From Dehalococcoidia bacterium (lineage in GTDB: Bacteria; Chloroflexota; Dehalococcoidia; Bin125), in the NCBI GenBank assembly GCA_965116225.1, contig OZ220495.1:149405-213404 (forward strand): a DNA stretch of 64,000 nucleotides, given 5' to 3'. Position numbers and translations under genes: made by a program. How positions within the stretch are numbered: the first letter of the stretch is position 1; every line of letters starts with the position of its first letter. The notes under the pieces were generated by a model, which did no database searches, had not been told where the DNA came from, and worked only from the letters and a program-made list of their open reading frames with translations. Below, in pieces: positions 2,698-29,964 of this stretch.

Positions 2698-5178
2698 CTA
2701 GTTGCTGATGTAGAGGATGTCCGAGCGGCCGACCGTGAAATCGCTCGAACCCGGCACCATCGTCCCATCCACAACGGAATAGCGAACCCAGGCCGAGCCG
2801 TTCCACAGGTGGACGGCGCTGGCGCCGCGACCCGAGACCAGACCGAAGACCTCCGACGCCGTTGATTCGACATCGCAGGTCCAGGTGGCGAAGCCGCTCA
2901 AGGCGCTGAGACAGTCCAGACTCGCTTCCGCCGCCGGCGCCGCGGGCGCGCCGGCCGTGCTGATCAGCACCTCGACGTCGCGCGCCGGCGTCGAATCGTC
3001 CGAGACCGTGGCTCGCACCACCGCCCGACCGGCCCCGACCACCGTCAGCGTCGTCGTCGCCTTGCCGGCTACCGTCAGCGCCGACGTATCGTCCAGCACC
3101 GCCACCGCATCGTCGTCGCCGACCAGGTCCGACACCCCGAATGCGACCATGGTGCCGTCCGCCACCGCGTTGCCGCCGGCGTCTGTGACCATCACGCTCG
3201 CCGTCACGCCCTGACCAATCTCGGTCGCCGGCACCGGATCCAGCGTCAGATCGACCTCGTCCGCCGCGCCCACGACCATGAGCGTCGTCGACGCCTTCAG
3301 CGTCCCCGACGTCACCTCAAGTGTGTACGTCCCAGCCGCCAGCGCCGATGTGATCGCCGCGTCGATGTCCAGCATCAGACTGCTCATCATCGAACCCGAC
3401 TGCGTCGTCTCGTACTTGCTCTGCGCCACCAGCGCGCCGCCCGACGTCTTCAGCATCGCCGTCACGGTCGGTACCGTAACCGCCGAACCGGAGGCGTCCG
3501 TCGCGTCAAGCATGAACGAAATCTGGTCGCGCGCGTCCGTGCCGCTATCCGCCTTGGTCGCCGCGTTATAGTCGGCCGCCTGGTCGTTGCCGACGTTGTA
3601 GCCCAACACGTTGCTGGGCGCCGCGCCGATGCTCAGCGAGGTGGCCGGACCCGAGAACCGCACCTGGACCGGGTCGGGTCGATGCACCTGACCGCCCGAG
3701 ATCACGGTCGCCGTGACCGTCGCCGTACCCGGCGACGCCGGCGCCTTCAGCTCAATCCGCATCTTGGCCGGCAGTTGGTCGCCCGACGCCCGCAGACTGC
3801 TCAGGTCGAGCTCGCAGGCCGCCGAGTTCTGCGTCTTGCAGTTCGCCGCCTGAGCCGTCTCGGACCCCATCGCGCCGATGCTCTGCGTCGACAGCGTCCC
3901 GCCCGTGGTCGTGACCACAATCGACGAGACCGCGCTCGCCTCCGACGGCTGGTTGCTCCCGCTCAACACCGACAGCGACAGCTCGGTCGTCCCCGTGCCC
4001 GCCATAATCGTGGTCGGCTCGGCCGTGGTCGCGTCGTCGACGTAGCCGTCCTTGGGCGTCGTATCCGTATCGCCGGCCATCGCCTTGCGCGGCGAACTGG
4101 GGCCGAAACTCACCGTCCCCACCTGGTTCGCCGTCGGACTCACCGTCAGCACCTTCGTGACCGTAATCGGCGTCGTGTCCAGCGCGCCCCGCTGTCCCTT
4201 GACCGTCACCGGGTAATCGCCCGCCGGCGTACCCGACGGAACGACGATCTCAATCGAGATGACATTGGTACCGGTCGTGTCCGATACCGCTCCGGGCAGC
4301 ACATTATCGGCGGTGCACCCTTTGCCCACGTAGGCGTATCCATTACTGCCGCTGCTACTGTCCGAACTGGTGCTGCCGTAGTTAACGCGGAAGCAGGTTT
4401 CCGCAAGCGCCTGATAAATCCAGTAGGCAGTTGCAGCCCTGTACGGATATTCAGAGTTCCTGAAGTATGTCTGCGAATATCCGTCGATCAGCGCGCCCAA
4501 CGGAACCCGAAGCACCCGAATGTCGGGGTCGCTATCCTTGTCGTGGTCGGCCGTGGTGATGGACCGGCTGCGATCCCGATCCAGGTAGTCATCGGGAACG
4601 GACTCGGTGCGCACCATGTCGAAGTTCAGACCGGGAACCTCGGCGCTGTTCACCAGGGCCCCGTTCTTGCCCGTCACCTTGAGCTGCACGTTCGTCCCCG
4701 CCGGCACCACGCCGTCGGACTCGCCCACGAACACGACCTCGAGCGACGGTGTCGCCTCCGGCGTGGTCGAGGGCGCCTGGTCGGCCGCATACGTCGTCAC
4801 CGTGATCGTGTAGCGGTTCAGCGCGATCCCGTTGTCGGTCACGACGATCTCGTAGACCGCCGAACCGGTGTCGTCTTCGCTATCGGCGTCCCGATCCGAG
4901 GGGGTGAAGGTGACCACCCGGCCCGACACCGAGGGGCTGTCCGACGCCAGCGTCTTGGTCCCGCCGCTCTTCCAGACCGCGCTGACCGTGCCCGTGCCCG
5001 GAATCGTCCGCGTGCACGGTACCGCCGCCGGCGTGCCGCCCTCTCCCGCCTGGGTCACCGTGCAGGCGGGCAGCGTCGTCTGCGCCTCAGCCGGTTGCGA
5101 GACCGCCGCCAGCGCGAGCGCCAACGCGACGAGCGCTGCCCCCCCCCCAATAATTTGGTTGATTTGGTTGATGCGCAT
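2698..5178 (-). CDS. Secreted Big_1 (invasin/intimin-type Ig-like) repeat surface protein, paralogue A; in frame only from secondary ATG at 5178
   Basis: 827 aa from ATG 5178 (MRINQINQIIGGGAALVALALALAAVSQPAEA, signal peptide). C-terminal ~480 aa nearly identical to the paralogues at 6870 and 23306, with Big_1-like motifs (GVTASVMVTDAGGNAVADGTMVAF). The G10 tract at 5149-5158 encodes GGG. Confidence 0.75.
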   Translation of the reverse strand: MRINQINQIIGGGAALVALALALAAVSQPAEAQTTLPACTVTQAGEGGTPAAVPCTRTIPGTGTVSAVWKSGGTKTLASDSPSVSGRVVTFTPSDRDADSEDDTGSAVYEIVVTDNGIALNRYTITVTTYAADQAPSTTPEATPSLEVVFVGESDGVVPAGTNVQLKVTGKNGALVNSAEVPGLNFDMVRTESVPDDYLDRDRSRSITTADHDKDSDPDIRVLRVPLGALIDGYSQTYFRNSEYPYRAATAYWIYQALAETCFRVNYGSTSSDSSSGSNGYAYVGKGCTADNVLPGAVSDTTGTNVISIEIVVPSGTPAGDYPVTVKGQRGALDTTPITVTKVLTVSPTANQVGTVSFGPSSPRKAMAGDTDTTPKDGYVDDATTAEPTTIMAGTGTTELSLSVLSGSNQPSEASAVSSIVVTTTGGTLSTQSIGAMGSETAQAANCKTQNSAACELDLSSLRASGDQLPAKMRIELKAPASPGTATVTATVISGGQVHRPDPVQVRFSGPATSLSIGAAPSNVLGYNVGNDQAADYNAATKADSGTDARDQISFMLDATDASGSAVTVPTVTAMLKTSGGALVAQSKYETTQSGSMMSSLMLDIDAAITSALAAGTYTLEVTSGTLKASTTLMVVGAADEVDLTLDPVPATEIGQGVTASVMVTDAGGNAVADGTMVAFGVSDLVGDDDAVAVLDDTSALTVAGKATTTLTVVGAGRAVVRATVSDDSTPARDVEVLISTAGAPAAPAAEASLDCLSALSGFATWTCDVESTASEVFGLVSGRGASAVHLWNGSAWVRYSVVDGTMVPGSSDFTVGRSDILYISN
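5149..5158 (-). repeat. Homopolymeric G10 tract (C10 on plus) inside the signal-peptide coding region of paralogue A
   Basis: Counted directly. Homologous tracts are G12 (9272-9283) and G13 (25789-25801). Confidence 0.8.
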
Positions 5179-5472
5179 CGGCGCATGTTGGCGCGCATCC
5201 GCGCAAGTCTCTGAACCATCTCCAGCCCCTTTCCCGAGACCAGTCGCCGCCCCGTCCGCTCGGGGCGCTCTCCGCCCAAGTATCGCACAGGCAATACCGC
5301 GCAAGACCCCGTATTTCGGTTCTTTTCAAGAATTTACGCTCTGGTTACGATCATTCTGCCGATTTCCGCGGCCCGCCTCCGTCGTACTCGCGCTCTGCCC
5401 GGGCCACAAGAGAACGTCATGTCCGCGCCGGGCGCGGCATGACCGTAGGGGGGGCGCGCCCCTCACCCTTCA

Positions 5473-5895: not shown

Positions 5896-6522
5896 CTAGC
5901 CGCCGTTGCCGTTGGCATCAGGGTTGGGGTCGGGATTGCCGTTGGGATTGGGGTTAGCGCCGGGATTGCCGTTGGCATCGGGGTTAGGGTCGGGATTGCC
6001 ATTGGCATCGGGGTTAGGGTCAGGATTGCCGTTGGCATCGGGGTTAGGGTCGGGATTGCCGTTGGGATTGGGGTTAGGGTCGGGATTGCCGTTGGCATCG
6101 GGGTTGGGGTCGGGATTGCCATTGGCATCGGGGTTGGGGTCGGGATTGCCATTGGCATCGGGGTTAGGGTCGGGATTGCCGTTGGCATCGGGGTTAGGGT
6201 CGGGATTGCCGTTGGGATTGGGGTTAGCGCCGGGATTGCCATTGGCATCGGGGTTAGCGCCGGGATTGCCGTTGGGATTGGGGTTAGCGCCGGGATTGCC
6301 ATTGGCATCGGGGTTAGCGTCCGGTGGCGTTGGCGTCGGGGTTGGCGGCGGCGGCGGCGGCGGGGCTGGTGGCGTCGGCGTCGGCGTCGGGGTCGAGGCT
6401 GAAGGCCTATCGCCACCGCTGCAGCCGTCTCGGGCGTCAACCGACTCAATGGCGGCGATGGCTCCGATGATCACGGCGATGCTCAGCGCTGCCGTCGCCG
6501 CTGCTATCCGTAGGCGTTCCAT
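5896..6522 (-). CDS. Membrane-anchored/secreted low-complexity protein with Pro/Thr linker and about 14 NP(D/N)ANG decapeptide repeats
   Basis: ATG at 6522 preceded by AAGGAG (spacing 6). Hydrophobic N-terminus (MERLRIAAATAALSIAVIIGAIAAI), then a PTPTPTPPAPPPPPPPTPTPTPP linker and a tandem (DANGNPDPNP)n array. The plus-strand alternative frame (GLGSGLPLAS)n has no signal or RBS. Confidence 0.55.
   Translation of the reverse strand: MERLRIAAATAALSIAVIIGAIAAIESVDARDGCSGGDRPSASTPTPTPTPPAPPPPPPPTPTPTPPDANPDANGNPGANPNPNGNPGANPDANGNPGANPNPNGNPDPNPDANGNPDPNPDANGNPDPNPDANGNPDPNPDANGNPDPNPNPNGNPDPNPDANGNPDPNPDANGNPDPNPDANGNPGANPNPNGNPDPNPDANGNGG
5935..6315. repeat. 30-bp tandem repeat array (about 12-13 units, variants gggattgccgttggcatcggggttagggtc)
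   Basis: Direct reading of the sequence. Units differ by single substitutions (agggtc vs agcgcc vs ggggtc). Confidence 0.85.
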
Positions 6523-6814
6523 GAGGATCTCCTTCTCTGTCGCCCCGCCTGTCAGGGCACTCCCGGATATATTCGGGCAGTCGCGTGTTATGGCCAAGCT
6601 GGCAAACCGCTGCCGAACAGGTACCAGAGAGGGATAGGAAGCGGGCGAGCGGGTCGCGGAGGCTGGGCTTCGAGCGTCAGCTCGCCTTCGGACGCGTCTG
6701 GTCGATCAGCGGTCGAATGCGGCGTTGCGCACGGGGGTGGGAATGGGGCAGTTGCGCGCCGACGCCGGAGGCGAGGGCATGATCGGCATCTCCGCAGCGG
6801 AACTTAACGACGAG

Positions 6815-6869: not shown

Positions 6870-9354
6870 TTAGTTGCTGATGTAGAGGATGTCCGAGCGG
6901 GAGACGGCGAAGTCGCTGGAGCCGGGCACCAAGGTTCCGCCGACGACCGAGTAGCGGATCCAGGCGGTACCGTTCCACAGGTGGACGGCGGTCGCGCCCC
7001 GACCGGAGACCAGACCGAAGACCTCGGAGGCCGTCGATGTGACGTCGCAGGTCCAGGCGGCGAAGCCGGTCCAGGCGCTCAGACAGTCCAGACCCACGGT
7101 CTCGGCCGCCGCCGCCGCGGGCGCGCCGGCCGTGCTGATCAGCACCTCGACGTCGCGCTCCGGCGTCGAGTCGTCCGAGACCGTCGCTCGCACGACCGCG
7201 CGACCGGCGCCCACGACCGTCAGCGTCGTCGAGGCTTTGCCGGCTACCGTCAACGCCGTCGTATCGTCCAGCACTGCCACCGCGTCGTCGTCGCCGACCA
7301 AGTCCGAGACGCCGAACGTGACCATCGTGCCGTCCGCCACCGCGTTGCCGTCGGCATCGGTGACCATCACGCTCGCCGTCACGCCCTGACCAATCTCGGT
7401 GGCCGGGACCGGATCGAGCGTCAAATCGACCTCGTCCGCCGCGCCCACGACCATGAGCGTCGTTGACGCCTTCAGCGTCCCCGACGTCACCTCCAGCGTG
7501 TACGTCCCCGCCGCCAGCGCCGATGTCATCGCCGCGTCGATGTCCAGCATCAGATTGTTCATCATCGAACCCGACTGGGTCGTCTCGTACTTGCTCTGCG
7601 CGACCAGCGCGCCGCCCGACGTCTTCAGCATCGCGCTCACGGTCGGCACCGTGACCGCGGAGCCGGAGGCGTCCGTCGCGTCGAGCATGAACGAAATCTG
7701 GTCGCGGGCGTCCATGCCCGCGTCCGCCTTGGTCGCCGCGTTGTAGTCGGCCGCCTCGTCGTTGCCGACGTTGTAGCCGAGCACGTGACTCGGCGCCGCG
7801 CCGATGCTCAGCGAGGTGGCCGGGCCGGAGAACCTGATTTGGACCGGGTCGGGTCGATGCACTGTGCCGCCCGAGATCACGGTCGCGGTGACCATCGCCG
7901 TACCCGGCGTCGCCGGCGCCTTGAGCTGAATGCGCATCTTGGCCGGCAGCGGATCGCCCGACGCCTTCAGGCTGGTCAGGTCGAGCTCGCAGGCAGCCTG
8001 ACCGCCGGTCTTACAGGTCGCCTTCTGGTCGACCAGGGCGCCGGCCGGGCCGATCTGCTCGGTCGACAGCGTGCCGCCCGTGGTCGTAATCACAATCGAC
8101 GAGACCGCGCTGGCCTCGGACGGCTGGTTGCTCGCGCTCAATACCGAGAGCGACAGCTCGGTCGTGCCCGTGCCGGCCATAATCGTGGTCGGCTCCGCCG
8201 TGGTCGCGTCGTCGATGTAGCCATCCTTGGGCGTCGTATCCGTATCGCCGGCCATCGCCTTGCGCGGCGAACTGGGGCCGAAGCTCACCGTCCCCACCTC
8301 GTTCGCTGTGGGGCTGACCGTCAGCGTCTTCGAGATGGGCGTCAGCGGCGTCGGGTCCTTCAGGCTGCGCTGACCGTACAGCGTGACGACGTAATCACCG
8401 GCAGGCGTGCCCCTGGGCACGACGAGCTCCAGCTCGTACTGGGAGGTATGGAGCGCGCCCGCCGTTTCGCCCTCGTTGCAATAGGATGGGGGGTTGGTAT
8501 TGATTGCCTTTTGGCAGCGACCCCGGAGCAGGAACTCGGCTAAGATGTACTGTAACTGCCCACTCCCGTATTTCGGATTGATTCTGCCAGTGAAGTGCGG
8601 CTCGGATGAGGTGTAGATGTCCGAACCGAGCGACGATGAGCGCGTGATCCGCACATCCATCTTGTCATCCACATCGTGATCCTTGTCGTCGACGGTTTCG
8701 TCCCCATTCCGATCCAGCGTGTCGTCGCCCCAGTAGGCGGTCCGCTTGCCGAAGAAAGTCAACCCTCCCGAAACGGTGATCCGCGTCGGCCATGCATCGT
8801 TCTTGGAGACGTACCTGACGATGACGTTCGTGCCCGCGGTGACGACGCCGTCGGACTCGCCCAGGAAGACGAGCTCGAGCGAGGGCGTCGTCGTCGTGGT
8901 CGCCGGCGCCTGGTCGGCCGCGTAGGTGGTCACCGTGATCGTGAAACGGGCCAGCACGATCCCGTTCTCGGTCGCGATGATCTCGTAGACCGCCGAACCG
9001 GTGTCGTCGTCGCTATCGGCGTCCCGATCCGAAGGCGTGAACGTCACCACCTTCCCCGACACCGAGGGGCTGTCCGCCGCCAGCGTGCTGTCCTTGCCGC
9101 TCTTCCAGACCGCGCTGATCGTGCCCGTGGCCGGAATCGTCCGCGTGCAGGGCACTGCCGCGGGGTCGTCGCCCTCTCCCGCCTGGGTCACCGTGCAGGC
9201 GGGCAGCGTCGTCTGCGCCTCAGCCGGCTGCGAGACCGCCGCCAGCGCTAGCGCCAACGCGACTAGCGCTGCCCCCCCCCCCCAATAATTTGGTTGACTT
9301 AGTTGATGCGCGTCGGCGCATGTTGACGCGCATCCGCGCCAGGCTCTTGACCAT
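6870..9354 (-). CDS. Big_1 repeat surface protein, paralogue B; out of frame at the G12 tract in this sequence
   Basis: SD-linked start ATG 9354 (gggaagagagg-N5-ATG, MVKSLARMRVNMRRRASTKSTKLLGGGG). The conserved signal core and mature protein (AALVALALALAAVSQPAEAQTTLPACTVTQ...) are in another frame and are only in frame if the tract is G11 or G14. The stop-to-stop ORF is 6870..9404. Confidence 0.65.
9272..9283 (-). repeat. Homopolymeric G12 tract in the signal-peptide region of paralogue B
   Basis: Counted directly (9 C + 3 C on the plus strand). Confidence 0.8.
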
Positions 9355-9445
9355 CTCGGCCTCTCTTCCCGGTATTCAGTCGCCGCCTCGTCCGTCGGAG
9401 GCATTGTTGCCTATTATCGCACAGCCGAACCGCGATATCGCCGTG

Positions 9446-9454
9446 CCCCCCCCC
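9446..9454 (-). repeat. Second homopolymeric tract (G9) in the conserved 5' promoter-like region of paralogue B
   Basis: Lies between an A/T-rich block (TAAATTTTTTTAC) and a putative extended -10 (TGCGATAAT at about 9408-9416, minus strand). Confidence 0.6.
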
Positions 9455-9527
9455 GTAAAAAAATTTACGCTCTAGTTACAATCGCCTGATTCCCATGCGT
9501 TGCGCGGGAATGAAGAAATTGAGTGGC

Positions 9528-11885
9528 TCACGGAGCATCCCCCGAACCCGATTGCCAGCGGGTGAGGCGAAGGGCGTTGCCCAGCACGGAAAGGGAGCTG
9601 GCGACCATGGCCATGGCGGCGGCGATGGGCTCGAACTGCCCGCGATCGCCGAACAGCCACTGGAACCCGGCCGGGACGCCGCCAGCGGCGTCGAACAGGG
9701 GTACGGCGAGTCCGGCCGCCAGCGGAATCAGTAGGATGTTGTATCCGAAGGCGAAGCCCAGATTCTGTCGGATGATCGCGCGCGCGGCGCGCCCGATCAG
9801 CATGGCCTGGGCGGCGCGCAACGGACTGGAGCGCATCAGCGCGACCTGGGCGGTTTCGACGGCGATGTCCGAACCGCTGCGCATGGCCAGTCCCAGATCG
9901 GCCTGGGCTAGGGCGGGGGCGTCGTTGACGCCGTCGCCGACCATCGCCACGCGCTTGCCGAGCGATTGCAGTCGCGCGACCCGATCCGCCTTGTCCGTCG
10001 GCAGTACCTGCGCCGACACGTCGTCGATGCCGACCTGACCAGCGACGGATCGGGTTACGGCTTCGGCGTCGCCGCTGATCAGGATCGAGTCGACGCCGCG
10101 CCGACCGAGCAACTCGACCGCGTCGGCAGCGCCGACGCGCAGCTGATCCTCCAGTCGGATGACGCCGAGCAGTTCCGCGTCCCGGGCGACGTAGACCGGC
10201 GTGGCCGGAGTGCGCGCGCCATCGGGCGGGTCATCCGGCAGGCTGACGCCCAAATCGGCCATCAGTCCGGCGCTGCCGACCGAGACCCGACGTCCGTCGA
10301 TCATCCCGCTGGCGCCGCGCCCCGGGTAGGAGATGAATTGGGATACGGCATGTTGCGACACGGCGGGCGGCGCATCGCGGGAAGGTAGGTCGCGGGATTC
10401 CGCATAGGCGACAATCGCTTCGGCCAGCGGGTGCTCGGACTGGCGCTCGACGGCCGCCGCCACGGACAACCATGCGAGATCGTCCTCGAGATACGATTCG
10501 ACGGCAACGACCTCGTGCCGACCGCTGGTGAGGGTGCCGGTCTTGTCCCAGATCACGGTGTCGATGCGCCCCGCCGCCTCGATCGCCTCGGCGTCGCGGA
10601 AGAGGATACCGAGCCCGGCGGCGCGGCCGGCGGCGGCGGCGATCGCGGCCGGGGTTGCCAGACCCAACGCGCAGGGACAGGCGACGACCAGCACGGCGAC
10701 GGCGCTGAGCAACGCGGCGCTCCAGCCCCTCTCGCCGCCGAACAGGCCCCAGGCCAGGCACGTCGTCGCGGCGATCAGGATGACCAGCGGAACGAAGACG
10801 GCGGCGAGACGGTCGGCGAGCCGCTGCGCCGGGGCCTTGGATGCTTGCGCGCGCTCGACGGTCGCCGTAATCCGGGCGAGTGCCGTCTCGGCGCCCACCT
10901 GCGCGGCGCGATAGCCGAAGGCGCCGTCGAGGTTGATCGCGCCGGCGAACACGCTGTCGCCGCGCCCCTTGGCGACCGGCGCGCTCTCGCCCGTGAGGAT
11001 CGACTCATCGACCGCGCTGTCGCCCTCGACAATCTGTCCGTCGACCGGGATGCGTTCGCCCGGTCGGACGCGAACGAGATCTCCGACGACAACCCGATCG
11101 GCGGGCAGATCCCGTTCCACGCCGTCGCGGACGACGCGGGCGGTCTGCGGCGCGAGCTGCAACAGCCGGGTCAGCGCCGAGGCGGCTTTAAGACGCACCC
11201 GCGCCTCTAGCGCGCGTCCGAGACTGACGAATCCGACGATGATCAGGGCCGTGTCAAAGAACACGTCGCGATCGGCCAGGGCTGAGTCGAATCCGCCCAG
11301 CGCGCCTAGCGCATTGTGCCCCAGCGCGATCGTGGCGCTGTAGCCCCAGGCGGCGAGAACCCCGAGCGCGATCAGCGTGTCCATGTCCGTGCTGCGACGC
11401 GAGGCGGCGAGCGCGGCGCGACGCAGATTGGGCCAGGCGCACCAGGCGAGAATCGGGGTTGCGACGGCGAAGAGGATCGGGTGCAGGAGGTCGGGGTTCC
11501 AGCCGAGGTCGGCCCAGCGATTGGCCTGCATGGCGGCGAAAATGCCCCAACCGGCCAACAAGGCCGGCCCCGCGCGGTTGAACAGGGCGCGGCTAAGCGA
11601 GAGCGGCGGCGACTCGCGCGCCGCCGACCGGTCGGGTTCGGCTTCGAGCAGTTCGTAGCCGGCGCCGCTAATCGCCGCGCCGATTGCGGGACGCTCGAGC
11701 GCGCCGTCGATCTCGATCACGGCGCGTCCGGCGAGGAAGTCGGCAGACGCCTCGACCACGCCGTCCAGCTTGAGCAGCGCCCGCTCGACGCGTCGCACGC
11801 AGGCGGCGCAGTGCATCCCGTCGATGCGCAGCGTCTGCCTGCTCGACGCGCCCGGATCGGTCGCGGTAGTCATCGCTTGCAGCAT
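9528..11885 (-). CDS. copA: Copper-translocating P1B-type ATPase
   Basis: N-terminal HMA domain (GMHCAACVRRVERAL), CPC motif (VVACPCALGLATP), DKTGTLT, GDGVNDAPAL. Confidence 0.9.
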   Translation of the reverse strand: MLQAMTTATDPGASSRQTLRIDGMHCAACVRRVERALLKLDGVVEASADFLAGRAVIEIDGALERPAIGAAISGAGYELLEAEPDRSAARESPPLSLSRALFNRAGPALLAGWGIFAAMQANRWADLGWNPDLLHPILFAVATPILAWCAWPNLRRAALAASRRSTDMDTLIALGVLAAWGYSATIALGHNALGALGGFDSALADRDVFFDTALIIVGFVSLGRALEARVRLKAASALTRLLQLAPQTARVVRDGVERDLPADRVVVGDLVRVRPGERIPVDGQIVEGDSAVDESILTGESAPVAKGRGDSVFAGAINLDGAFGYRAAQVGAETALARITATVERAQASKAPAQRLADRLAAVFVPLVILIAATTCLAWGLFGGERGWSAALLSAVAVLVVACPCALGLATPAAIAAAAGRAAGLGILFRDAEAIEAAGRIDTVIWDKTGTLTSGRHEVVAVESYLEDDLAWLSVAAAVERQSEHPLAEAIVAYAESRDLPSRDAPPAVSQHAVSQFISYPGRGASGMIDGRRVSVGSAGLMADLGVSLPDDPPDGARTPATPVYVARDAELLGVIRLEDQLRVGAADAVELLGRRGVDSILISGDAEAVTRSVAGQVGIDDVSAQVLPTDKADRVARLQSLGKRVAMVGDGVNDAPALAQADLGLAMRSGSDIAVETAQVALMRSSPLRAAQAMLIGRAARAIIRQNLGFAFGYNILLIPLAAGLAVPLFDAAGGVPAGFQWLFGDRGQFEPIAAAMAMVASSLSVLGNALRLTRWQSGSGDAP

Positions 11886-12096: not shown

Positions 12097-14961
12097 ATGA
12101 TCGACCCAGGAAAGGGGCGAACGATGCCTGGAATACCCAGTGGACGCCTAGTAATGCCGGCGGGAATCCGGATCAGGTTGGCATGCGCGGCGACGCTAGT
12201 CGCGCTAGTCGGCGGGATAGTCGTCGCGGCGCAGCCGGCATCGGCTGCGCCGCCCGCGCCGTATTGGACGAGCGCCAAGGCGACCATCGCGACGATCACG
12301 CTCAACTGGGGCATCAGCGACCCCTCCGGCGTGACCAAGTTTCAGTACCAGCAGAAGGAGGGTGGCGGCAGCTTCGGCGCCTGGACCGACGTCCCCAATT
12401 CCGGCAACGGCACCAGGAGCTTCAAGAAGACCGGCCTGACCCCGGGCACGAGTTACACCTTCAAGCTTCGCGCCGTCGCCGGAGCCACCCCCGGCGCAGC
12501 ATCGGGTACTTGGTCGAAAACGACGGAATACGTACCGTCCCCGGCCTTCTTGTCGAACCAGTTCGTCAGCACCAGCGCCTCGATCACGCTCAAGTGGAAG
12601 TCGGACAGCAGCAACGAGATCACCAAATGGGAGCTTCGCTACAAGCTGAACAGCGCCGGCTCGTTCGGGAATTGGGCGAACGTCGGCGGCGCGGCCACCC
12701 GGACGCACACGGTGAGCGGACTGACGGCCGACACAGAGTATGACTTCGAGCTGCGCGCTGTCGTTGGCAGCACGCCAGGCAGCGCGCAGGCATATACGGC
12801 GTCTACCACTGCCGCAGGGGGAACCCCAACCCCGACTCCAACCCCGCGGGTCACGACGGCCCCGCCGGCGCCGGCCTGGTCGGCCTTACAGGCCACCATC
12901 GCGACGATCACGCTCAACTGGAGTATCAGCGACCCCTCCGGCGTGACCAAGTACCAGTACCAGCAAAAGGCGAGCGGCGGCAGCTGGAGCGCCTGGACCG
13001 ACATCCCCGATTCCAACGCCGGTACCACGAGCTTCACCAGAACCGGCTTGACCCCTGGCACGAGCTACCAATTCAAGCTTCGCGCCGTCGCCGGCGCCAC
13101 CCCCGGCGCAGCATCGAATGCCCGGTCGAGTTCGACCGACTACGTACCGTCCCCGGCCTTCTTGCATGACCAGTTCGTCAGAACCCAGACGTCGATCACG
13201 CTCAAATGGAGCGCGGCGAGCAGCAACGAGATCACCAGGTGGGAAGTTCGCTACAAGCTGAGCAGCGCCGGCTCGTTCGGGAAGTGGGCGAACGTCGGCG
13301 GCGCGACCACTCGGACGCACACGGTGACAGACCTGTCACCCAACACAGAGTATGACTTCGAGCTGCGCGCTCTCGTTGGCAGCGCCTCCAGCGCCGTACG
13401 ACAATACACGACGTCTACAACTGCCGCAGGGCGGACTCCAACACCGACCCCAATACCAACCCCGACCCCAACACCGACCCCAGCGCCGCGGGTCACGGTC
13501 ACGGCCCCGCCAGCGCCGCATTTGGGGAACTTCCAGGCCACCATCGCGACGATCACGCTCAACTGGAGCATCAGCGACAGCGCCGGCGTGACCAAGTACC
13601 AGTATCAGCAAAAAGCGGGCGGCGGCAGCTGGAGCGCCTGGACCGACATCCCCGATTCCAACGCCGGTACCTCGAGCTTCACCAGGACCGGCCTGACCCC
13701 TGGTACGTCTTACCGCTTCAAGCTTCGCGCCGTTGCCGGAGCCACCCCCGGCACAGCATCGATGGAACGGTCGATATCGACGGAACACGTGCCCTCCGGG
13801 GCTTGGTTGTATGACGAATTCGTCAGGACCGGCGCCTCGATCACGCTCAAGTGGAAGTCGGACAGCAGCAACGAGATCGCCAAATGGGAGCTTCGCTACA
13901 AGCTCAGCAGCGCCGGCTCCTACGGGAAGTGGACGAACGTCGGCGACGCGACCACTCGGACGCACACGGTGAGCGGCCTGACGGCCGACACACAGTATGA
14001 CTTCGAGCTGCGCGCTCTCGTTGGCAGCACCCCAGGCCGCGTACAGAGATACACGACGTCTACCACTGCCGCCGCACAGCAGAGTCCGACGAACACGCTC
14101 AAGGTCGTGCGCGACTCCGACCCCAGCGTGATCATGGGCTCGGGGCAGGTCGAATCCGTCTCCGTCGCCGAAGGGGACAGCGAAAACACATCGCTTTCGT
14201 TCCGTCTCACGCTCGACCAGACCCCTTCGCACGACGTCAGAGTCCAGGCGACGGTCTGGGCGCCTCGCGACGCGAACGTTCGAGGACGTTCCGGCGCCGG
14301 GCGCGAGCGCGACTTCCATTATCTACAACGCCATATCACGTTCGCGGCCGGCGCCACTGGACAGGCGTTGAGCAAGCTGCTGACCGTCGAGATCATCGGC
14401 GATACCCGCGATGAAGATGATGAGACGTTCGAGGTTCGGGTCAACAACCTGCACAGCGGCGATGCCCGGGTGCGGCTGCACGGCGGCGGCAAGCGGATCG
14501 CCTTCAACGTCGTGATCAGCGATGACGACGAACCGAACGCCGAACAGGTCTCGGCGACGCCGATCATCGTCAGCGTGACCGACCAGGCCGCCGCGGAAGG
14601 GGATGCGGGCGTGAGCTTCATGGAATTCCCCGTGACGCTCAGCGGTTCGCCGTCTCACGATGTCCGGCTGCAGGTCACGGCCTGGGCCAAGGGGAAAGAC
14701 ACTGTGCGAGGAAGCCGCAAGGGCCCGGGTCGCGACTTCGGCTATCTGCGGCGTCACATCACGTTCGAGGCCGGCGCCAGCGGGGCGGCGCTGACCCAGA
14801 CGATCCGGGTTCGCATCTTCGGCGATCAGGTTGCGGAACCCGACGAGACGTTCGAGGTTCGGGTCAACAACCTGCTGACGCAGGACAAGCGAGTGCAGAT
14901 GGGCGTGGACGGCCGGACCAGGGTGACAGCGACCGGCACGATTCGCAACGACGACGAGTAG
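12097..14961 (+). CDS. Secreted protein with three tandem FN3 pairs followed by two Calx-beta-like domains
   Basis: Signal-like N-terminus (ATLVALVGGIVVAAQPASAAPPAP; likely start at 12124 or 12154). Three ~210-aa repeat units (WTS/ATIATITLNW...YQQK...TGLTPGTSY.FKLRAV). C-terminal units with Calx-beta signatures (DETFEVRVNNL, ISDDDEPNAE). Confidence 0.75.
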   Translation: MIDPGKGRTMPGIPSGRLVMPAGIRIRLACAATLVALVGGIVVAAQPASAAPPAPYWTSAKATIATITLNWGISDPSGVTKFQYQQKEGGGSFGAWTDVPNSGNGTRSFKKTGLTPGTSYTFKLRAVAGATPGAASGTWSKTTEYVPSPAFLSNQFVSTSASITLKWKSDSSNEITKWELRYKLNSAGSFGNWANVGGAATRTHTVSGLTADTEYDFELRAVVGSTPGSAQAYTASTTAAGGTPTPTPTPRVTTAPPAPAWSALQATIATITLNWSISDPSGVTKYQYQQKASGGSWSAWTDIPDSNAGTTSFTRTGLTPGTSYQFKLRAVAGATPGAASNARSSSTDYVPSPAFLHDQFVRTQTSITLKWSAASSNEITRWEVRYKLSSAGSFGKWANVGGATTRTHTVTDLSPNTEYDFELRALVGSASSAVRQYTTSTTAAGRTPTPTPIPTPTPTPTPAPRVTVTAPPAPHLGNFQATIATITLNWSISDSAGVTKYQYQQKAGGGSWSAWTDIPDSNAGTSSFTRTGLTPGTSYRFKLRAVAGATPGTASMERSISTEHVPSGAWLYDEFVRTGASITLKWKSDSSNEIAKWELRYKLSSAGSYGKWTNVGDATTRTHTVSGLTADTQYDFELRALVGSTPGRVQRYTTSTTAAAQQSPTNTLKVVRDSDPSVIMGSGQVESVSVAEGDSENTSLSFRLTLDQTPSHDVRVQATVWAPRDANVRGRSGAGRERDFHYLQRHITFAAGATGQALSKLLTVEIIGDTRDEDDETFEVRVNNLHSGDARVRLHGGGKRIAFNVVISDDDEPNAEQVSATPIIVSVTDQAAAEGDAGVSFMEFPVTLSGSPSHDVRLQVTAWAKGKDTVRGSRKGPGRDFGYLRRHITFEAGASGAALTQTIRVRIFGDQVAEPDETFEVRVNNLLTQDKRVQMGVDGRTRVTATGTIRNDDE
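12210..14100. repeat. Three tandem ~630-bp DNA repeats (FN3-pair units), roughly 85-90% identical
   Basis: Identity assessed by eye; near-identical stretches such as gccaccatcgcgacgatcacgctcaactgg recur at 12290, 12895 and 13535. Confidence 0.8.
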
Positions 14962-20489: not shown

Positions 20490-21659
20490 CTACTTGCTCC
20501 ACCAGCCGTAGTGGCGGCTCTTCGACCATTGTCCGCATTGGTCGGAGTAGGCCTCCACCTGCACGCGCAGATAATGACCGGTGCCAGTCGGCAGACCGGT
20601 CACTGTCTTCGACAGCGTCGCAGCGGCGGAGCGGAAGTACTCGTCCGCGTAATCCACGTCGGTATACGCGTCGAGGTAGACGTAGTAGTTGTACTCGATC
20701 ATTTGCGCCGCGTACTTGGTCGCCTGGTTGCCGCCGGCGCTGACGTAGGCGCAGCGCTTGTCGCGCTTGCCACCGATGGCTCGCGGCTTCTGCCAGCTGA
20801 TCGTCACCTCACCCGACGTGCTCGTATCGACGCTCAGGTCGCGCACCGGAAACGGCGCGCGCAACTTCCGCGTCGCCGGCGCAGACGGATTCGTGTTCGA
20901 CGCCGACGTCCAGAAAAACGCCGTCGCCAACTCCGATTCCTCCCCGCAACCGTCCTCCGACTCCGCGTACACCTCCACGTAATGCCGGTACGGATAGTTC
21001 AACTCGTCCACGTACCAACTCGTACCGCTATCGATGCGCAGCGACTCGGCCACCATCGGCATCGTCGGCGCCACCTCGTACACGCGCACGAAGTAGCCGG
21101 CCGTGGGACAATAGCCGCCGTCGCCGTGGCCGCCGCTCGTCCAGGAAATCAGGGCGCTATCGTAGCCCGCCTGCACCGTCAACCCGGTCGGCGTACTGGG
21201 CAACGTTCCAGCCGCGCCGTACGGCTTGGCGCTGACCGTATCCGAGGCCGGGCCGATCCCGCCTGAGTTCTTGGCCCGCAGCTCGAAGCTGTAGCTCACC
21301 CCGCTGCCGTCCAGCGACCTGACCCGGTAGAAATCCGTCCAGCTGCCGCCGGCCGCAGTCCAGCTCCCCCAGGCGCCACTGCCCTTGCGCTGCCGATATT
21401 CGTAATTGTCGATGGCCCGAACCTCCGCCATCGACGGATGATTCCACTTCAGCGTGACCGATCGCGGCCCCGCAGTGGCGAACAACCCCTCCGGCTTGGT
21501 CAGCGTCACGCTCTGCCCGAGCGCCGACTCCGAGCCGAACGCGACCAGCCCGACCAGCAATCCGGCCATCGCCAGCAGACCCCAACGAGTCAGGAACCGA
21601 GACCTGTGATCAGCACGCAATATGCGAAGAGGGGCGTTGAGCCCTGGTGGGTAAGACAT
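20490..21659 (-). CDS. Secreted fibronectin type III domain protein
   Basis: ATG 21659 (MSYPPGLN...RWGLLAMAGLLVGLVAFGSESALGQS, signal peptide). FN3-like motifs (SVTLKWNHP, YEYRQRKGSGAWGSW, YSFELRAKN). Confidence 0.7.
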   Translation of the reverse strand: MSYPPGLNAPLRILRADHRSRFLTRWGLLAMAGLLVGLVAFGSESALGQSVTLTKPEGLFATAGPRSVTLKWNHPSMAEVRAIDNYEYRQRKGSGAWGSWTAAGGSWTDFYRVRSLDGSGVSYSFELRAKNSGGIGPASDTVSAKPYGAAGTLPSTPTGLTVQAGYDSALISWTSGGHGDGGYCPTAGYFVRVYEVAPTMPMVAESLRIDSGTSWYVDELNYPYRHYVEVYAESEDGCGEESELATAFFWTSASNTNPSAPATRKLRAPFPVRDLSVDTSTSGEVTISWQKPRAIGGKRDKRCAYVSAGGNQATKYAAQMIEYNYYVYLDAYTDVDYADEYFRSAAATLSKTVTGLPTGTGHYLRVQVEAYSDQCGQWSKSRHYGWWSK

Positions 21660-21894
21660 CCGAACATCTCCTGTGCATCTCCAACGATGCCAGCGCCCAA
21701 CCCGAGCGCCCGGCGATAGCGGCACATTAGCCACGACGCCCGCAGCCGATCAAACGCGCCAAGCGATATTCGGTAACCTTCGCCCGAATCGAGTTAAGCG
21801 GAACAAGCTTATCGTCGACCAAATTCGTTATGCTCGCGCCCGGCGCGAGCGCGGCGACGCACCGAGCAGGTGGAACGTCGGCGAGCAGCGCGGT

Positions 21895-22143
21895 TCAGAG
21901 AGCCGATTCAGCATCACGCTGAGCATCGCGCTCATTAAGCCAAACATACCCGCGAACCTGTGCCAAGCCGTCCTGCAATTCCCAGCGGGTCGCCGTCTGC
22001 GAGATCACCCGCGTCAGACCCAGCTCGAGCGCCTGCCGGTAGGCCCGCGCCGACGCCTGATCCATCCCCGTCTCGACCAACCCTTCCTCCAGATCGTCCG
22101 ACCATGACTCAATCACCGGGTCGCGCACTGTCTCAGTTGTCAT
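21895..22143 (-). pseudogene. Copy 2 of the DUF1640-like small gene; TM segment lost by frameshift/deletion
   Basis: MTTETVRDPVIESWSDDLEEGLVETGMDQASARAYRQALELGLTRVISQTATRWELQDGLAQVRG, then out of frame relative to copy 3. Fused directly to the paralogue fragment upstream. Confidence 0.45.
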
Positions 22144-22199
22144 GCCGTCGCCTCCGTCGTCGGCATACCGCATCCCCTGAGCGGCGGCGCTGCGCTGGC

Positions 22200-22500
22200 G
22201 ACGCGAGACCAGACCGAACATCTCCGACGCCGTCGATTCGACATCGCAAGTCCAGGTGGCGAAACCGGTCAAGGCGCTCAGGCAGTCCAGACTCGCCTCG
22301 GCCGGCGTCGCCGACCCGGCCCGCCCGCCGTGCTGATCAGCACCTCGACGTCGCGCTCCGGCGTCGAATCGCCCGACACCGTCGCCCGCACCACCGACCG
22401 ACCGTCGCCGACCACGGTCAGCGCAGCGAAGATTGAGTCGGCGTCGGGCGCGGCGCTGGCGGTCGTTGCGAAGGTTGGGTTGCTAGCGCGAGGGCAGCGT
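22200..22500 (-). pseudogene. Fragment of a fourth Big_1 paralogue (C-terminal region only, frameshifted)
   Basis: Encodes VVRATVSGDSTPERDVEVLISTAG and LDCLSALTGFATWTCDVESTASEMFGLVS in two different frames. Lacks the last ~60 codons and the terminator. Confidence 0.55.
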
Positions 22501-22679: not shown

Positions 22680-23145
22680 TCAGAGCCGAACGAGGAGCGC
22701 GGTCATAAACCCGAACACGCCCACGAACCCCAGACCCACCGTCCAGGTCAACAGATTGAGCCGCTTCTGCATCTCCCCGAAGCGCTGATCCATCTCCCGC
22801 TGCAACTGATCCCGTATCTCCCGCATCTCAGCGCGCAACTGGTCGCCCATTTCCTTCATCTCAGCGCGCAGCTGTTCCCGCATCTCCCCCATCTCCCGAC
22901 GCAGGTCGCCCATCTCCCCGCGAACTTGCGCCAAGCCCTCATGTAGCTCTTGCCGACCCTGCGCCAAGCCGTCCTGCAGCTCCTGCCGCGTTGCTGTCTG
23001 CGAGATCACCCGCGTCAGACCCAGATCGAACGCCTGCCGATAGGCGTGCGCCGATGCCTCATCCATCCCCACCTCGACCAGCCCCCTCCTCCAGATCGTC
23101 CGACCATGCCTCAATCACCGGGTCGCGCACTGTCTCAGTCGTCAT
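22680..23145 (-). CDS. DUF1640-like small coiled-coil protein with C-terminal TM, copy 3 (frameshift at a G5 run near the 5' end)
   Basis: From ATG 23145 the frame breaks after EEG (gaggagggggctggtc; copy 2 has one fewer G). Downstream frame gives MDEASAHAYRQAFDLGLTRVISQTATRQELQDGLAQ...LRAEMKEMGDQLRAEMREIRDQLQREMDQRFGEMQKRLNLLTWTVGLGFVGVFGFMTALLVRL. Confidence 0.5.
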
Positions 23146-23305: not shown

Positions 23306-25845
23306 CTAGTTGCTGATGTAGAGGATGTCCGAGCGGCCGACGGCGAAGTCGCTGGAGCCGGGCACCATCGTCCCATCGACCACCGAGTAGCGGACCCAGG
23401 CGGAGCCGTTCCACAGGTGGACGGCGCTGGCGCCCCGACCCGAGACCAGGCCGAACACCTCCGACGCCGTCGATTCGACATCGCAGGTCCAGGTGGCGAA
23501 GCCGCTCAAAGCGCTGAGACAGTCCAGGCTCACCGCCTGGGCCGGCGCCTCGGGCGCGCCCGCCGTGCTGATCAGCACCTCGACGTCGCGCGCCGGCGTC
23601 GAGTCGTCCGAGACCGTGGCGCGCACCACCGCGCGACCGGCCCCGACCACGGTCAGCGTCGTCGAGGCTTTGCCGGCTACCGTCAGCGCCGACGTATCGT
23701 CCAGCACCGCCACCGCATCGTCGTCGCCGACCAGGTCCGACACCCCGAACGCCACCATGGTGCCGTCCGCCACCGCGTTGCCGTCGGCATCGACGACCAT
23801 CACGCTCGCGGCGACGCCCTGACCGATCTCGGTCGCCGGCACCGGCTCCAGCGTCAGATCGACGCTGTCCGCCGCCCCCACGACTATGAGCGTGGTTGAC
23901 GCCTTCAGCGTCCCCGACGTCACCTCCAGCGTGTACGTCCCCGCCGCCAGCGCCGATGTGATCGCCGCGTCGATGTCCAGCATCAGACTGCTCATCATCG
24001 AACCCGACTGCGTCGTCTCGTACTTGCTCTGCGCCACCAGCGCGCCGCCCGACGTCTTCAGCATCGCGCTCACGGTCGGTACCGTAACCGCCGAACCGGA
24101 GGCGTCCGTCGCGTCAAGCATGAACGAAATCTGGTCGCGCGCGTCCGTGCCGCTATCCGCCTTGGTCGCCGCGTTGTAGTCGGCCGCCTCGTCGTTGCCG
24201 ACGTTGTAGCCCAACACATTGCTGGGCGCCGCGCCGATGCTCAGCGAGGTGGCCGGACCCGAGAACCTGATCTGGACCGGGTCGGGTCGATGCACCGTGC
24301 CGCCCGAGATCACGGTTGCGGTCACCGTCGCCGTACCCGGCGACGCCGGCGCCTTGAGCTGAATCCGCATCTTGGCCGGCAATGGATCGCCCGAGGCCCG
24401 CAGACTGGTCAGGTCGAGCTCGCAGGCCGCCTGGCCGTTGCTCTTGCACTTTGCCTTCTGGTCGACCAGGGCGCCGGCCGGGCCGATCTGCTCGGTCGAC
24501 AGCGTCCCGCCCGTGGTCGTGATCACAATCGACGAGACCGCGCTCGCCTCCGACGGCTGGTTGCTCCCGCTCAACACCGACAGCGACAATTCCGTCGTGC
24601 CCGTGCCCGCCATAATCGTGGACGGCTCCGTTGTCGACGCGTCATCGATGTAGCCGTCCTTGGGCGTCGTATCCGTATCGCCCGCCACCGCCTTGCGCGG
24701 CGAACTGGGGCCGAAACTCACCGCCCCCACCTGGTTCGCCGTCGGACTCACCGTCAGCACCTTCGTGACCGTAATCGGCGTCGCGTCAACCGCGCCCCGC
24801 TGTCCCTTGACCGTCACCGGGTAATCGCCCGCCGGCGTCCCCGACGGAACGACGATCTCAATCGAGATGACGTTGGTGCCGATGGTCTTGTTGGCGCCCC
24901 CTACCTGTCCGGGGAGCGGATTGTCGCTGTCGGCGCCCGAGCACCCCGCGCCCAGGTAACTGCCGTCGCTCGAACTGCTCGTACTGATGTACTCGACTAC
25001 GCCGCCAACAGTCCTTGAGCCGCCGTAGTTATAGCGGAAGCAGGTTGCCTCAAGCGCCTGATAAATCCAGTAGCTGGCGCCCGACCTGTATGGGAATTCC
25101 TGATTGGAGACTTCGATCTTTGACCCATCCCTCGACTCGATGTACGGACCTAACGCAACCCGAGCCACGCGCACATCGGGGTCGCTATCCGCGTCATGGT
25201 CGGCGGTGGTCCAGGAGCGGCTGAGGTCTCGATCCAGATAGTCATCGGGAACGTACTCGGTGCGCAGGAAGTCGAAGTGCAGACCGGAAGCCGCGATGCT
25301 GTTCACCTGGGCGCCGTTCTTGCGGGTCACCTTGAGCTGCACGTTCGTGCCCGCCGGCACCACGCCGTCGGACTCGCCTACGAACACGATCTCCAGCGAG
25401 GGGGTCGTCTCCGGTGTGGTCGAGGGCGCCTGGTCGGCCGCGTAGGTGGTCACCGTGATCGTGTAGCGGTTCAGCGCGATCCCGTTGTCGGTCACGACGA
25501 TCTCGTAGACCGCCGAACCGGTGTCGTCGTCGCCGGTCACCCGGTCCGACGGCGTGAAGGTCACCACCCGACCCGACACCGAGGGGCTGTCCGACGCCAG
25601 CGTCTTGGTCCCGCCGCTCTTCCAGACCGCGCTGACCGTGCCCGTGCCCGGAATCGTCCGCGTGCAGGGCACTGCTACCGGCGTGCCGCCATCCCCAGCC
25701 TGGGTCACCGTGCAGGCCGGCAGCGTCGTCTGCGCCTCAGCCGGCTGCGAGACCGCCGCCAGCGCAAGCGCCAACGCGACGAGCGCTGCCCCCCCCCCCC
25801 CAATAATTTGACGCGCATGCGCGCAACGATGTGAGTCATCTTCAT
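23306..25845 (-). CDS. Big_1 repeat surface protein, paralogue C; out of frame at the G13 tract
   Basis: SD-linked start (aaagggag ATG AAG ATG at 25845/25839; MKMTHIVARMRVKLLGGGG) is in frame with the mature protein only if the tract is G11 or G14. The stop-to-stop ORF is 23306..26116. Confidence 0.65.
25789..25801 (-). repeat. Homopolymeric G13 tract in the signal-peptide region of paralogue C
   Basis: Counted directly (2+10+1 C on the plus strand). Confidence 0.8.
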
Positions 25846-25931
25846 CTCCCTTTCGCAGGATCCGTCTCCGCCCCGAACGGCCGAGGCGCACTTGGCAAGT
25901 ATCGCACGGCGTCGCATGTCGTATCGCCGTA

Positions 25932-25943
25932 CCCCCCCCCCCC
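25932..25943 (-). repeat. Second homopolymeric tract (G12) in the conserved 5' region of paralogue C
   Basis: Same position as the G9 tract of paralogue B, next to AAATTTTTTGAC and upstream of TGCGATACT. Confidence 0.6.
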
Positions 25944-26102
25944 GTCAAAAAATTTACCCGTGATTTACAATCAACGAACCCGTAACCCGTCGATTGACGT
26001 GATCCATCTCCGTCATGCCCGGCTGGCCCGGGGCTCTCGCTTGCAAGGCGGGGAACAAGACGCCCGCGCCCGGCGCGGGCATGCATGACAGGAGGCGGCG
26101 TT

Positions 26103-26942
26103 TCAGATCTCAGCATGCGCGCCGCGATGGCGCATGCGGGCGACGAAGACGGGCGGAATGTCGGGGAGATGAGCCCAGCTGAGGCGCATGGTCGGCTCGT
26201 CGGCGTCGCCCTCGCCGCCGTCGCTGATCGACGGTTCGCGGATGCCGTCGAGCACCCAGCCGCGGTCGAAGGCGGCGCTGAACAGCTCGGTCAGGGTTCG
26301 ATGGAAGTACGGCTGGAGGCTGGGTTGACCGACCGCGGCGATGCCGCGCTGCGCGCCCGTGTTCCGATAGCCGCTGATGCGCACGCCTGTTTCTTGGATC
26401 AGTTCGCCGTCCGGCGTCTCCATGCGCTCGGCGAACAGGCGCACGTCGGGTCCTGGATTGAAGGCGGGATGCAGGATCGAGAAGACGAACGGCGCGTTGT
26501 CGGCGAGGACGAGCGGGAGCATGTCGAACAGCGGCGTGATCTCGGCGATATCCATGAGCGCCATGTTGCAGACGACCGCGCCGAACGGCGCGCCGGCGGC
26601 GCCCGCCAGCGCGGCCAGGGCGGAACGATCAGTGGCGTCCAGGCGCATCCAGCGGATTTTGACGCCCGTGGAGCGCTGATCGGCTCGGTCGAGTTGCGCC
26701 TTCGAGCCGTCGGTCGCGGTCACCGCAACGCCGTGACCGGCGAGCTGTCGAGCGAAGGCGCCGTTGCCGCAGGCGATCTCCAATACCCTGTTCGGCAGCG
26801 GCTGGAGCAGCTCCAGGCTGGCGGGGAAGACCAGCGTTCGCTGCCAGTAGTTGCCCTCGTCGCCCTGGACCTGGTCCCAGAATTCAGCGTTCTGCTCCCA
26901 CGCCTCCAGCGATTCGTCGTTGTGTTCGGGATAGTCGATCAT
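26103..26942 (-). CDS. Class I SAM-dependent methyltransferase
   Basis: VLEIACGNGAFARQLAGHGVAVTATDGS (motif I). Start ATG 26942 (MIDYPEHND). Confidence 0.75.
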   Translation of the reverse strand: MIDYPEHNDESLEAWEQNAEFWDQVQGDEGNYWQRTLVFPASLELLQPLPNRVLEIACGNGAFARQLAGHGVAVTATDGSKAQLDRADQRSTGVKIRWMRLDATDRSALAALAGAAGAPFGAVVCNMALMDIAEITPLFDMLPLVLADNAPFVFSILHPAFNPGPDVRLFAERMETPDGELIQETGVRISGYRNTGAQRGIAAVGQPSLQPYFHRTLTELFSAAFDRGWVLDGIREPSISDGGEGDADEPTMRLSWAHLPDIPPVFVARMRHRGAHAEI

Positions 26943-29915: not shown

Positions 29916-29927
29916 CCCCCCCCCCCC
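29916..29927 (+). repeat. C12 homopolymer immediately upstream of TATATT, 37 nt before the DinB-like start
   Basis: tcgagCCCCCCCCCCCCatatattcaacc...ATG(29965). Confidence 0.7.
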
Positions 29928-29964
29928 CATATATTCAACCGACATCCCCGACCTGGACTCCGCG

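Follow-up and report, generated by a model that had tools for sequence, protein, structure and literature searches.

A 64,000-nt stretch of DNA from a Dehalococcoidia bacterium (contig OZ220495.1, positions 149,405 to 213,404; the whole stretch is called the window, and all coordinates are those of the window) contains three paralogous genes, named A, B and C, all read on the minus strand (-). In paralogue B a run of 12 G residues lies inside the segment coding for the signal peptide, and as assembled it leaves the rest of the protein out of frame with the start codon. B is probably a member of a slipped-strand contingency-locus family of secreted surface proteins with multiple immunoglobulin (Ig)-like domains in Dehalococcoidia, a reading to which a probability of about 0.7 can be given. 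The locus has several of the features that define a simple sequence repeat (SSR) contingency locus, namely a suitable tract (a homopolymer of at least some 8 nt within the 5′ portion of an open reading frame, ORF), a frame logic, an otherwise intact ORF and a family organisation. The relevant features of B are:

9352..9370, (-): canonical start of B, with the Shine-Dalgarno (SD)-like sequence GGGAAGAGAGG (9370-9360), a 5-nt spacer and the ATG (9354-9352)
9272..9283, (-): coding poly-G tract of B (G12), 71 nt past the SD-linked ATG
9220..9354, (-): dead-end ORF read from the canonical start with G12 (MVKSLARMRVNMRRRASTKSTKLLGGGGSASRVGASAGGGLAAG, followed by a stop)
6870..9404, (-): open frame of B, called as P0001 from an ATG at 9404

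The minus strand of B reads gggaagagagg-ccgag-ATG (9354-9352)-GTC-AAG...TTATTG-G12 (9283-9272)-CAGCGCTAG, and the tract is placed between the n-region of the signal peptide and its hydrophobic core. These letters agree with those given for B in a first-pass annotation of the window, which had proposed that the gene is phase OFF. When the reading frame was simulated for tract lengths of G7 to G16, the SD-linked ATG reached the mature frame (...GGGAALVALALALAAVSQPAEA followed by QTT...) only with G8, G11 or G14; the canonical frame of B (MVKSLARMRVNMRRRASTKSTKLL-GGG-) thus requires a length of 3n+2. The simulation bears out the earlier statements that B is out of frame from this ATG at G12 and that G11 or G14 would restore it, G8 doing so likewise. 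The stop expected after about 60 codons comes sooner, the out-of-frame ORF having 44 codons. At the observed G12 the sole in-frame start is the ATG at 9404, which has a weak AGG 6 nt upstream. It had already been singled out as the only in-frame ATG, with an acidic extension; the n-region that it generates is indeed net-negative (a charge of -1, the canonical n-region having +8), while the distance to the hydrophobic core is 44 residues and not the 48 proposed. With G10 or G13 no start is left at all: the codon equivalent to an alternative ATG that A possesses (described below) is ACG in B, as had been read before, and a TAA lies in the same frame. The mature protein (6873-9215, 781 aa) has no further stop or frameshift in its 781 codons. 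Together these data support the view that B, as assembled, would be translationally OFF and restorable by G11 or G14, bearing in mind that one assembly gives the length of a homopolymer of 12 nt to no better than about ±1.

Comparison with relatives supports the SD-linked ATG as the real start of the family. A search of 5.8 billion proteins found only 20 relatives, 15 of them paralogues located on the same 2,601,622-bp contig; the protein clusters of the family were all singletons. The contig has at least 15 paralogues, of which about 10 have tracts. The SD-like sequence GGGAA(A/G)(G/A)G(A/G)G is kept in A, B and C, and appears as GGAAGGAacGGAC in a second species (OZ242034.1); the basic n-region motif (L)ARMR is kept even in species with only about 45–50% protein identity. 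Two paralogues show the expected arrangement directly. The N-terminus called for P0002 (MVKSLARMRVNMRRRASTKSTKLLGGGAALV...) is the same as the canonical frame of B up to the Gly linker, and that of P0011 is MTHRLARMRVNMRRCASTKLLGGGAALV...; in both, the gene call starts at the SD-linked ATG and continues via GGG into the hydrophobic core, so that they are in frame (ON). The canonical signal peptide has an n-region with a charge of +6 to +8, a hydrophobic core, and AEA followed by Q. The start chosen in the first-pass annotation is thus the correct one, given the ON copies P0002 and P0011, the conserved SD and n-region, and the charge of the signal peptide. B and P0002 are 92% identical over their full length, and the 27-aa n-region is identical in the canonical frame. 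Since its mature frame is also intact, B is not decaying. The phase OFF proposal holds in the light of the start validated by the relatives, the intact downstream ORF and the 92% identity to P0002.

The remaining paralogues on the contig fall into different states. P0007, P0008, P0012, P0013 and P0014 have the same type of N-terminus without the Gly run; these copies therefore have no tract and are fixed. P0003, P0006, P0009 and P0010 were called from an internal TTG located past the tract (MALALAAV... or MALAAV...), as was C (P0004), a choice that gene callers make if the canonical start is not in frame; the gene call of P0015 begins further inside. In sum, two copies of this genome are ON, A is in frame only via an alternative start, about six (C among them) have gene calls that begin internally, past the tract, and five are tractless.

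The other two paralogues of the window have coding tracts at the same position as B:

2698..5304, (-): paralogue A (P0005); 2698..5219 from its canonical ATG
5139..5148, (-): coding poly-G tract of A (G10)
23306..26116, (-): paralogue C (P0004; gene call beginning at an internal TTG, ‘MALALAAV’); 23306..25845 from one of its two possible canonical ATGs
25789..25801, (-): coding poly-G tract of C (G13)

The coding tracts of A, B and C are thus G10, G12 and G13 long, respectively, and lie between ...AAATTATTG and CAGCGCTxGTCGCGTTGGCGCT.... According to the frame simulation, all three window copies are outside the canonical register. The canonical ATG of C is either 25839-25837 or 25845-25843, and G13 is out of register, G11 or G14 being needed. 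In A, the G10 tract is out of register with the canonical ATG (5219-5217) and in register with an alternative ATG at 5178-5176 (MRINQINQIIGGG...). Of the three tract registers, A therefore has a usable ATG in two: G8 or G11 serve the canonical ATG, and G10 or G13 the one giving MRINQINQII. It also lacks an upstream G tract (see below), the sequence at that place being GTAAATTCTTGAAAAGAACC.... ATGs in two registers and the lack of an upstream tract suggest that A is a partly ‘unlocked’ or rewired copy.

Tracts of this length are not expected by chance. The window has a G+C content of 65%, and its homopolymer runs reach 7 nt, above which there are six, all of them C (and so G when read on the minus strand), with lengths of 9, 10, 12, 12, 13 and 13 nt. 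Under a first-order Markov model evaluated analytically over the 64 kb, 0.45 G/C runs of 9 nt or more were expected and six were observed; for runs of 12 nt or more the figures were 0.007 and four. A chance origin of the B tract can therefore be ruled out, the expectation for runs of at least 12 nt being 0.007 per window. Of the six long runs, five are found at the 5′ ends of A, B and C, where they occupy two conserved contexts. The sixth, a C13 run on the plus strand (29916-29928) followed directly by ATATATTC, ends 36 nt ahead of the ATG (29965) of a gene of the DinB_2/MDMPI_N family (29965..30573, plus strand). Its context is unlike that of the surface-protein family, and it may be another promoter-spacer tract.

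The same design was found in other genomes. A profile scan that considered one genome per species yielded 79 loci, all 79 in metagenome-assembled genomes (MAGs) of Dehalococcoidia or Chloroflexota. Among the genomes with loci, bin125 comes from the sponge Aplysina aerophoba (PMC5649159), and the names of other MAGs suggest a sponge origin as well. The 2.46-Mb contig OZ242034.1 has 15 family loci, and long G runs occur there at the same two positions. Twelve copies have an upstream tract (G9-G19) within the context GTAAATT-N4-GTAAATTTTC, Gn, TAAAyCTATTGATT, and eight have a coding tract (G9-G14) directly after ...LARMRLKI. Six of these eight are in frame (L002, L011 and L020 with G11, L003 with G12, L031 with G13 and L017 with G14, the frame of the last having been read by hand), while two are not (L001 with G12 and L009 with G9). 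L004, L012 and L013 have kept the upstream tract, and their coding tract is interrupted (G5, G6AG4 and G4, respectively) and locked in frame. Conversely, L003 has its G12 coding tract and lacks the upstream one. These four loci make it look as though each switch had been gained or lost independently in evolution. In all cases, the tracts are G on the sense (non-template) strand.

The upstream tracts lie in a second conserved context, in front of the start codon:

9446..9454, (-): poly-G tract upstream of B (G9), at 91 nt from its canonical ATG
9455..9468, (-): AT-rich box GTAAATTTTTTTAC, conserved and directly adjoining this G9 tract
9413..9421, (-): extended -10-like motif TGCGATAAT of B, a putative core element of the promoter
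25932..25943, (-): poly-G tract upstream of C (G12), between TTGAC and TACGGC

The tract of B is located in a 173-nt intergenic region that follows a P-type ATPase gene (9528..11885). The upstream tracts of both B and C are preceded by GTAAATTTTTT(T/G)AC. A GTAAATT sequence within the AT-rich box is common to A, B, C and the OZ242034.1 copies, and the GTGCGATA(A/C)T portion of the -10-like motif is invariant in A, B and C (TGCGATA(A/C)T). Between the 3′ end of the upstream tract and the ATG there are 89–92 nt in OZ242034.1 and in B; for B and C together, the upstream tracts are placed 89–92 nt ahead of the ATG. A family member of a third genome, L079 (OZ241962.1; L079:1301-1409), lacks a coding tract and has TTGAC-G19-TATAGG located 82 nt before an SD-linked ATG. 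This arrangement reads as a sigma-70-like -35/-10 pair with a spacer made wholly of poly-G, and is the cleanest such case in the data set. Three registers of the upstream tract relative to the promoter elements can be envisaged, all of them tentatively. In the first, which is the arrangement of L079, the tract would make up the entire spacer between -35 and -10; the optimal length would be near G17-19, and both B (G9) and C (G12) would also be OFF at the level of transcription. In the second, it would lie upstream of the invariant extended -10-like motif TGCGATA(A/C)T (9421-9413 in B), and in the third at position +1, downstream of a TAAATT acting as -10. A consensus scan detected no canonical terminator around the two upstream tracts of the window. 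A search of the whole window against Rfam at gathering thresholds gave no known RNA element; a known leader RNA or riboswitch at the locus was therefore rejected.

Evidence bearing on tract instability came from OZ242034.1, in which L015 and L016 form a recent intragenomic duplication of 3.18 kb. Over alignment columns 27-2973 (2.95 kb) the sole difference between the two is in the upstream tract, G15 in one and G14 in the other. This tract is therefore either the most mutable or else the most error-prone site of the pair. Tract lengths also vary among the window paralogues (G10, G12 and G13) and among the OZ242034.1 copies (G9-G14 for the coding tract).

The product of B was characterised by prediction. 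Pfam gave nothing for B and only sub-threshold matches to MG2 for A and C (17.7–18.2 bits, the cut-off being 32.8), and no sequence relative was found in the PDB, the best match of the profile search having an E-value of 0.009. An AlphaFold model of mature B, based on a 19-sequence alignment, had a mean predicted local distance difference test (pLDDT) score of 71 and a predicted template modelling (pTM) score of 0.37. It shows an all-beta chain of beta-sandwich folds with multiple Ig-like domains, with low confidence for the hypervariable region and for some 80 residues at the C-terminal end. Foldseek matches to the model were generic chains of Ig or MG domains, and included the S-layer proteins Sap of Bacillus anthracis and SbsB of Geobacillus as well as the adhesin PrgB. 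Among the 15 paralogues, mature residues 1–100 are about 80% identical and residues 300–781 are 80–90% identical, whereas residues 120–270 form a hypervariable cassette with an identity of only 12–45%. A Sec-type signal peptide, the predicted fold and a hypervariable cassette on a conserved scaffold fit a family of cell-surface proteins with a swappable exposed cassette.

The mechanism that we propose starts with the replication of the tracts. Slipped-strand mispairing at runs of G9 to G19 would change their length often and reversibly. In the coding switch, the poly-G encodes three to four Gly residues that link the basic n-region to the hydrophobic core, and B would be a silent copy that can be re-activated. 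The upstream tract, in its conserved AT-rich element 82–92 nt from the start, would most likely set promoter strength by changing the spacing between elements. By analogy with known systems, and with the TTGAC-G19-TATAGG arrangement of L079, expression would need both switches in a permissive state. About 10 tract-bearing copies switching independently would allow a clonal population to display different coat variants. This variation could plausibly serve to escape recognition by phages or by a host, the selective agent being speculative.

Several observations weigh against this proposal. A strict sigma-70 consensus scan found no promoter at either upstream tract of the window, that of B or that of C; the -10-like motif of B was missed by this same scan, and the register of the upstream tracts relative to the -35 and -10 elements is ambiguous. 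The OFF status of P0003, P0006, P0009 and P0010 was deduced from gene calls, not from DNA. The ON fraction is about 2–3 of 10 in the window genome and 6 of 8 in OZ242034.1, an inequality that is unexpected under a purely neutral, free-running switch. A scan of Joint Genome Institute (JGI) metagenomes for the exact motif found no tract alleles from the same species. Similarly, none of 13 related loci obtained from short-read sponge metagenomes in a profile-based scan had tracts, so the design would be lineage-restricted. There is no Pfam family or PDB relative, and the surface location and function are predictions. Finally, long homopolymers are error-prone in long-read assemblies, and B could therefore be G11.

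This last point leads to the most serious of the alternatives, namely that the true tract of B is G11 (or G14), that the gene is ON and that the frameshift is a consensus error of long-read sequencing. Such assemblies typically retain indels in long homopolymers as residual errors, and the single 2.6-Mb contig, with relatives that are complete-chromosome MAGs, suggests that this is one; the one-G difference between L015 and L016 can equally be explained as consensus noise. Even so, all the window copies and about six more are out of register while the other long ORFs of the window are intact, and random ±1 errors on a family that is entirely ON should leave most copies in frame. Besides, a miscall at B would leave the tracts real and their position conserved across paralogues and species, and tracts of 9–19 G are intrinsically hypermutable. 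On balance we consider an artefact at B unlikely, at somewhat less than one chance in five.

It could also be that tract length does not gate expression and only tunes its level, through slippage of the RNA polymerase, +1/-1 slippage of the ribosome, or the use of alternative starts (9404 in B, 5178 in A). RNA polymerase is known to slip on long homopolymers, the best-documented cases being A/T runs. The starts that A has in two of three registers, and the in-frame ATG of B at 9404 with its weak AGG, agree with leaky expression of this kind. On the other hand, the alternative N-terminus of B is net-negative, is 44 residues long, is not conserved in A or C and is unlike a signal peptide, and the third register of B has no start and contains a TAA. 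The interrupted, locked tracts of some copies further indicate that tract length matters to selection. As a replacement for switching, leaky expression thus seems improbable, although slippage or alternative starts are possible as an overlay on it.

More doubtful still is the idea that the G tracts serve to form G-quadruplexes, R-loops or recombination hot spots for gene conversion, with incidental effects on the frame. A quadruplex could in principle form from runs of G15 or longer, and in every tract the G residues are on the sense strand. The paralogues are mosaics of conserved and variable blocks, and the boundaries of the L015/L016 duplication resemble gene conversion. However, the coding tract lies precisely where a change of ±3 nt is harmless (the Gly linker) and one of ±1 is decisive. 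Expression switching accounts more simply for this site and for the constant, promoter-proximal location of the upstream tract. Lastly, a decaying duplicate that was permanently inactivated was rejected as very improbable: B is frameshifted relative to its own start and a family fragment at 22186-22421 shows that genes do decay in the region, but apart from the tract B is intact, with no other stop or frameshift in 781 codons, an intact SD and ATG, 92% identity to P0002, an ON copy whose n-region peptide is the same as that of B in its canonical frame, and a sole lesion at the one reversible site.

The surroundings of the three paralogues contain other genes for predicted surface proteins. Between A and B, an ORF at 5896..6597 (-) contains a tandem repeat (5906-6343; 30-bp unit, 14.7 copies, 89% matches) and encodes a low-complexity product, (NPDANGNPDP)n and Pro-Thr-rich, with an N-terminal hydrophobic segment. 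A large FN3-repeat protein with six fn3 domains and a Calx-beta domain is encoded at 12097..14961 (plus strand), and another with two fn3 domains at 20490..21734 (-). The family fragment at 22186-22421 (-) consists of two tblastn matches that are 77–88% identical to residues 713–744 and 757–791 of P0002, and represents a remnant of the conserved C-terminal domain of the family; it is adjoined by small coiled-coil ORFs (21895..22272 and 22680..23114). Overall, this region of the window looks like a cluster or island of predicted surface proteins.

Poly-G switches acting at promoters and within coding sequences are documented (PMC7864442, PMC11868660). Neisseria PilC1 and PilC2 resemble B in having a G run of about 11–13 nt in the signal-peptide region, in which changes of ±1 switch translation. 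They differ in that they are two genes instead of about 15, with no second tract at the promoter, and in that PilC is a pilus-tip adhesin of a proteobacterial pathogen, with an unrelated sequence and fold. Jonsson et al. (1991) reportedly located the PilC tract within the sequence coding for the signal peptide. The repeat of the Neisseria opa genes also occupies the signal-peptide coding region. Opa is a multigene surface family in which each paralogue has its own repeat and switches independently, with hypervariable exposed regions on a conserved scaffold, as is proposed for the family described here. There are 11 phase-variable opa genes in N. gonorrhoeae (PMC11868660). The present family appears to follow the Opa pattern in having many paralogues, whose individual repeats occupy the same position, and mixed ON and OFF states. 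Opa differs in its pentameric CTCTT repeat, in encoding small beta-barrel outer-membrane proteins and in lacking a promoter repeat.

Two-layer control, in which a promoter-region tract is combined with a coding-region repeat, operates in porA of Neisseria meningitidis and in sabA of Helicobacter pylori, which in this respect are similar to what is proposed for the family studied here. A poly-G in the -35/-10 spacer sets the transcription of porA, and opc has a poly-C at the -35 (PMC7864442). However, porA, opc and sabA are single genes, whereas the design seen here is family-wide, its promoter register being putative. In Treponema pallidum, tprE, tprG and tprJ have a promoter poly-G for which 8 or fewer G are permissive for transcription, the poly-G tract of tp0126 sits between the -35 and -10 elements, and mis-annotated starts hide signal peptides (PMC7864442). 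The tpr genes (tprE/G/J and tprL) and tp0126 have a promoter poly-G of variable length in front of paralogous, putative surface proteins, as is proposed for the present family. The Tpr tracts are located only at promoters and are of 7–11 G; here there is an additional coding tract, runs reach 19 G, and the organism belongs to a symbiont lineage of Chloroflexota with 65% GC. Campylobacter jejuni is reported to have multiple G8-G13 tracts that produce stochastic ON/OFF changes in surface determinants, some of them phage receptors (PMC3025981, PMC8224891). Those tracts are scattered over unrelated genes of an AT-rich genome, whereas here they concentrate in one paralogous family of a GC-rich genome.

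A literature search on phase variation or homopolymers in Chloroflexi, Chloroflexota, Dehalococcoidia and sponge symbionts found no prior description. The mechanism is a known one, while the organismal context, the protein family and the two-tract, family-wide and cross-species design appear to be undescribed. Phase variation by homopolymers has been studied almost entirely in pathogens and commensals of animals, such as Neisseria, Haemophilus, Campylobacter, Helicobacter, Treponema and Mycoplasma. Taken to its full extent, the proposal is that, in an uncultivated lineage of Dehalococcoidia with sponge symbionts among its relatives, a two-layer poly-G switchboard would control about 15 mosaic coat or adhesin genes, with one or a few variants per cell, that this phase or antigenic variation would be driven by phages or by an invertebrate host, and that it would be the first contingency-locus system in Chloroflexota; we regard this wider proposal as an even bet.

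The proposed switches have consequences for annotation. Gene callers mis-annotate the family: P0001 is given a spurious extension of 44 residues, and the calls of P0003, P0004, P0006, P0009 and P0010 begin at internal TTGs, which truncates the proteins and removes the signal peptide. Homopolymer ‘errors’ in long-read MAGs may be biology, and should not be polished away. If the proposal is true, a family-wide contingency design exists in Chloroflexota, within a lineage that has abundant sponge symbionts as relatives, and research on sponge symbiosis gains a concrete candidate for surface variation in a symbiont. The same kind of bet-hedging would then have evolved inside an animal that lacks adaptive immunity, or under pressure from phages.

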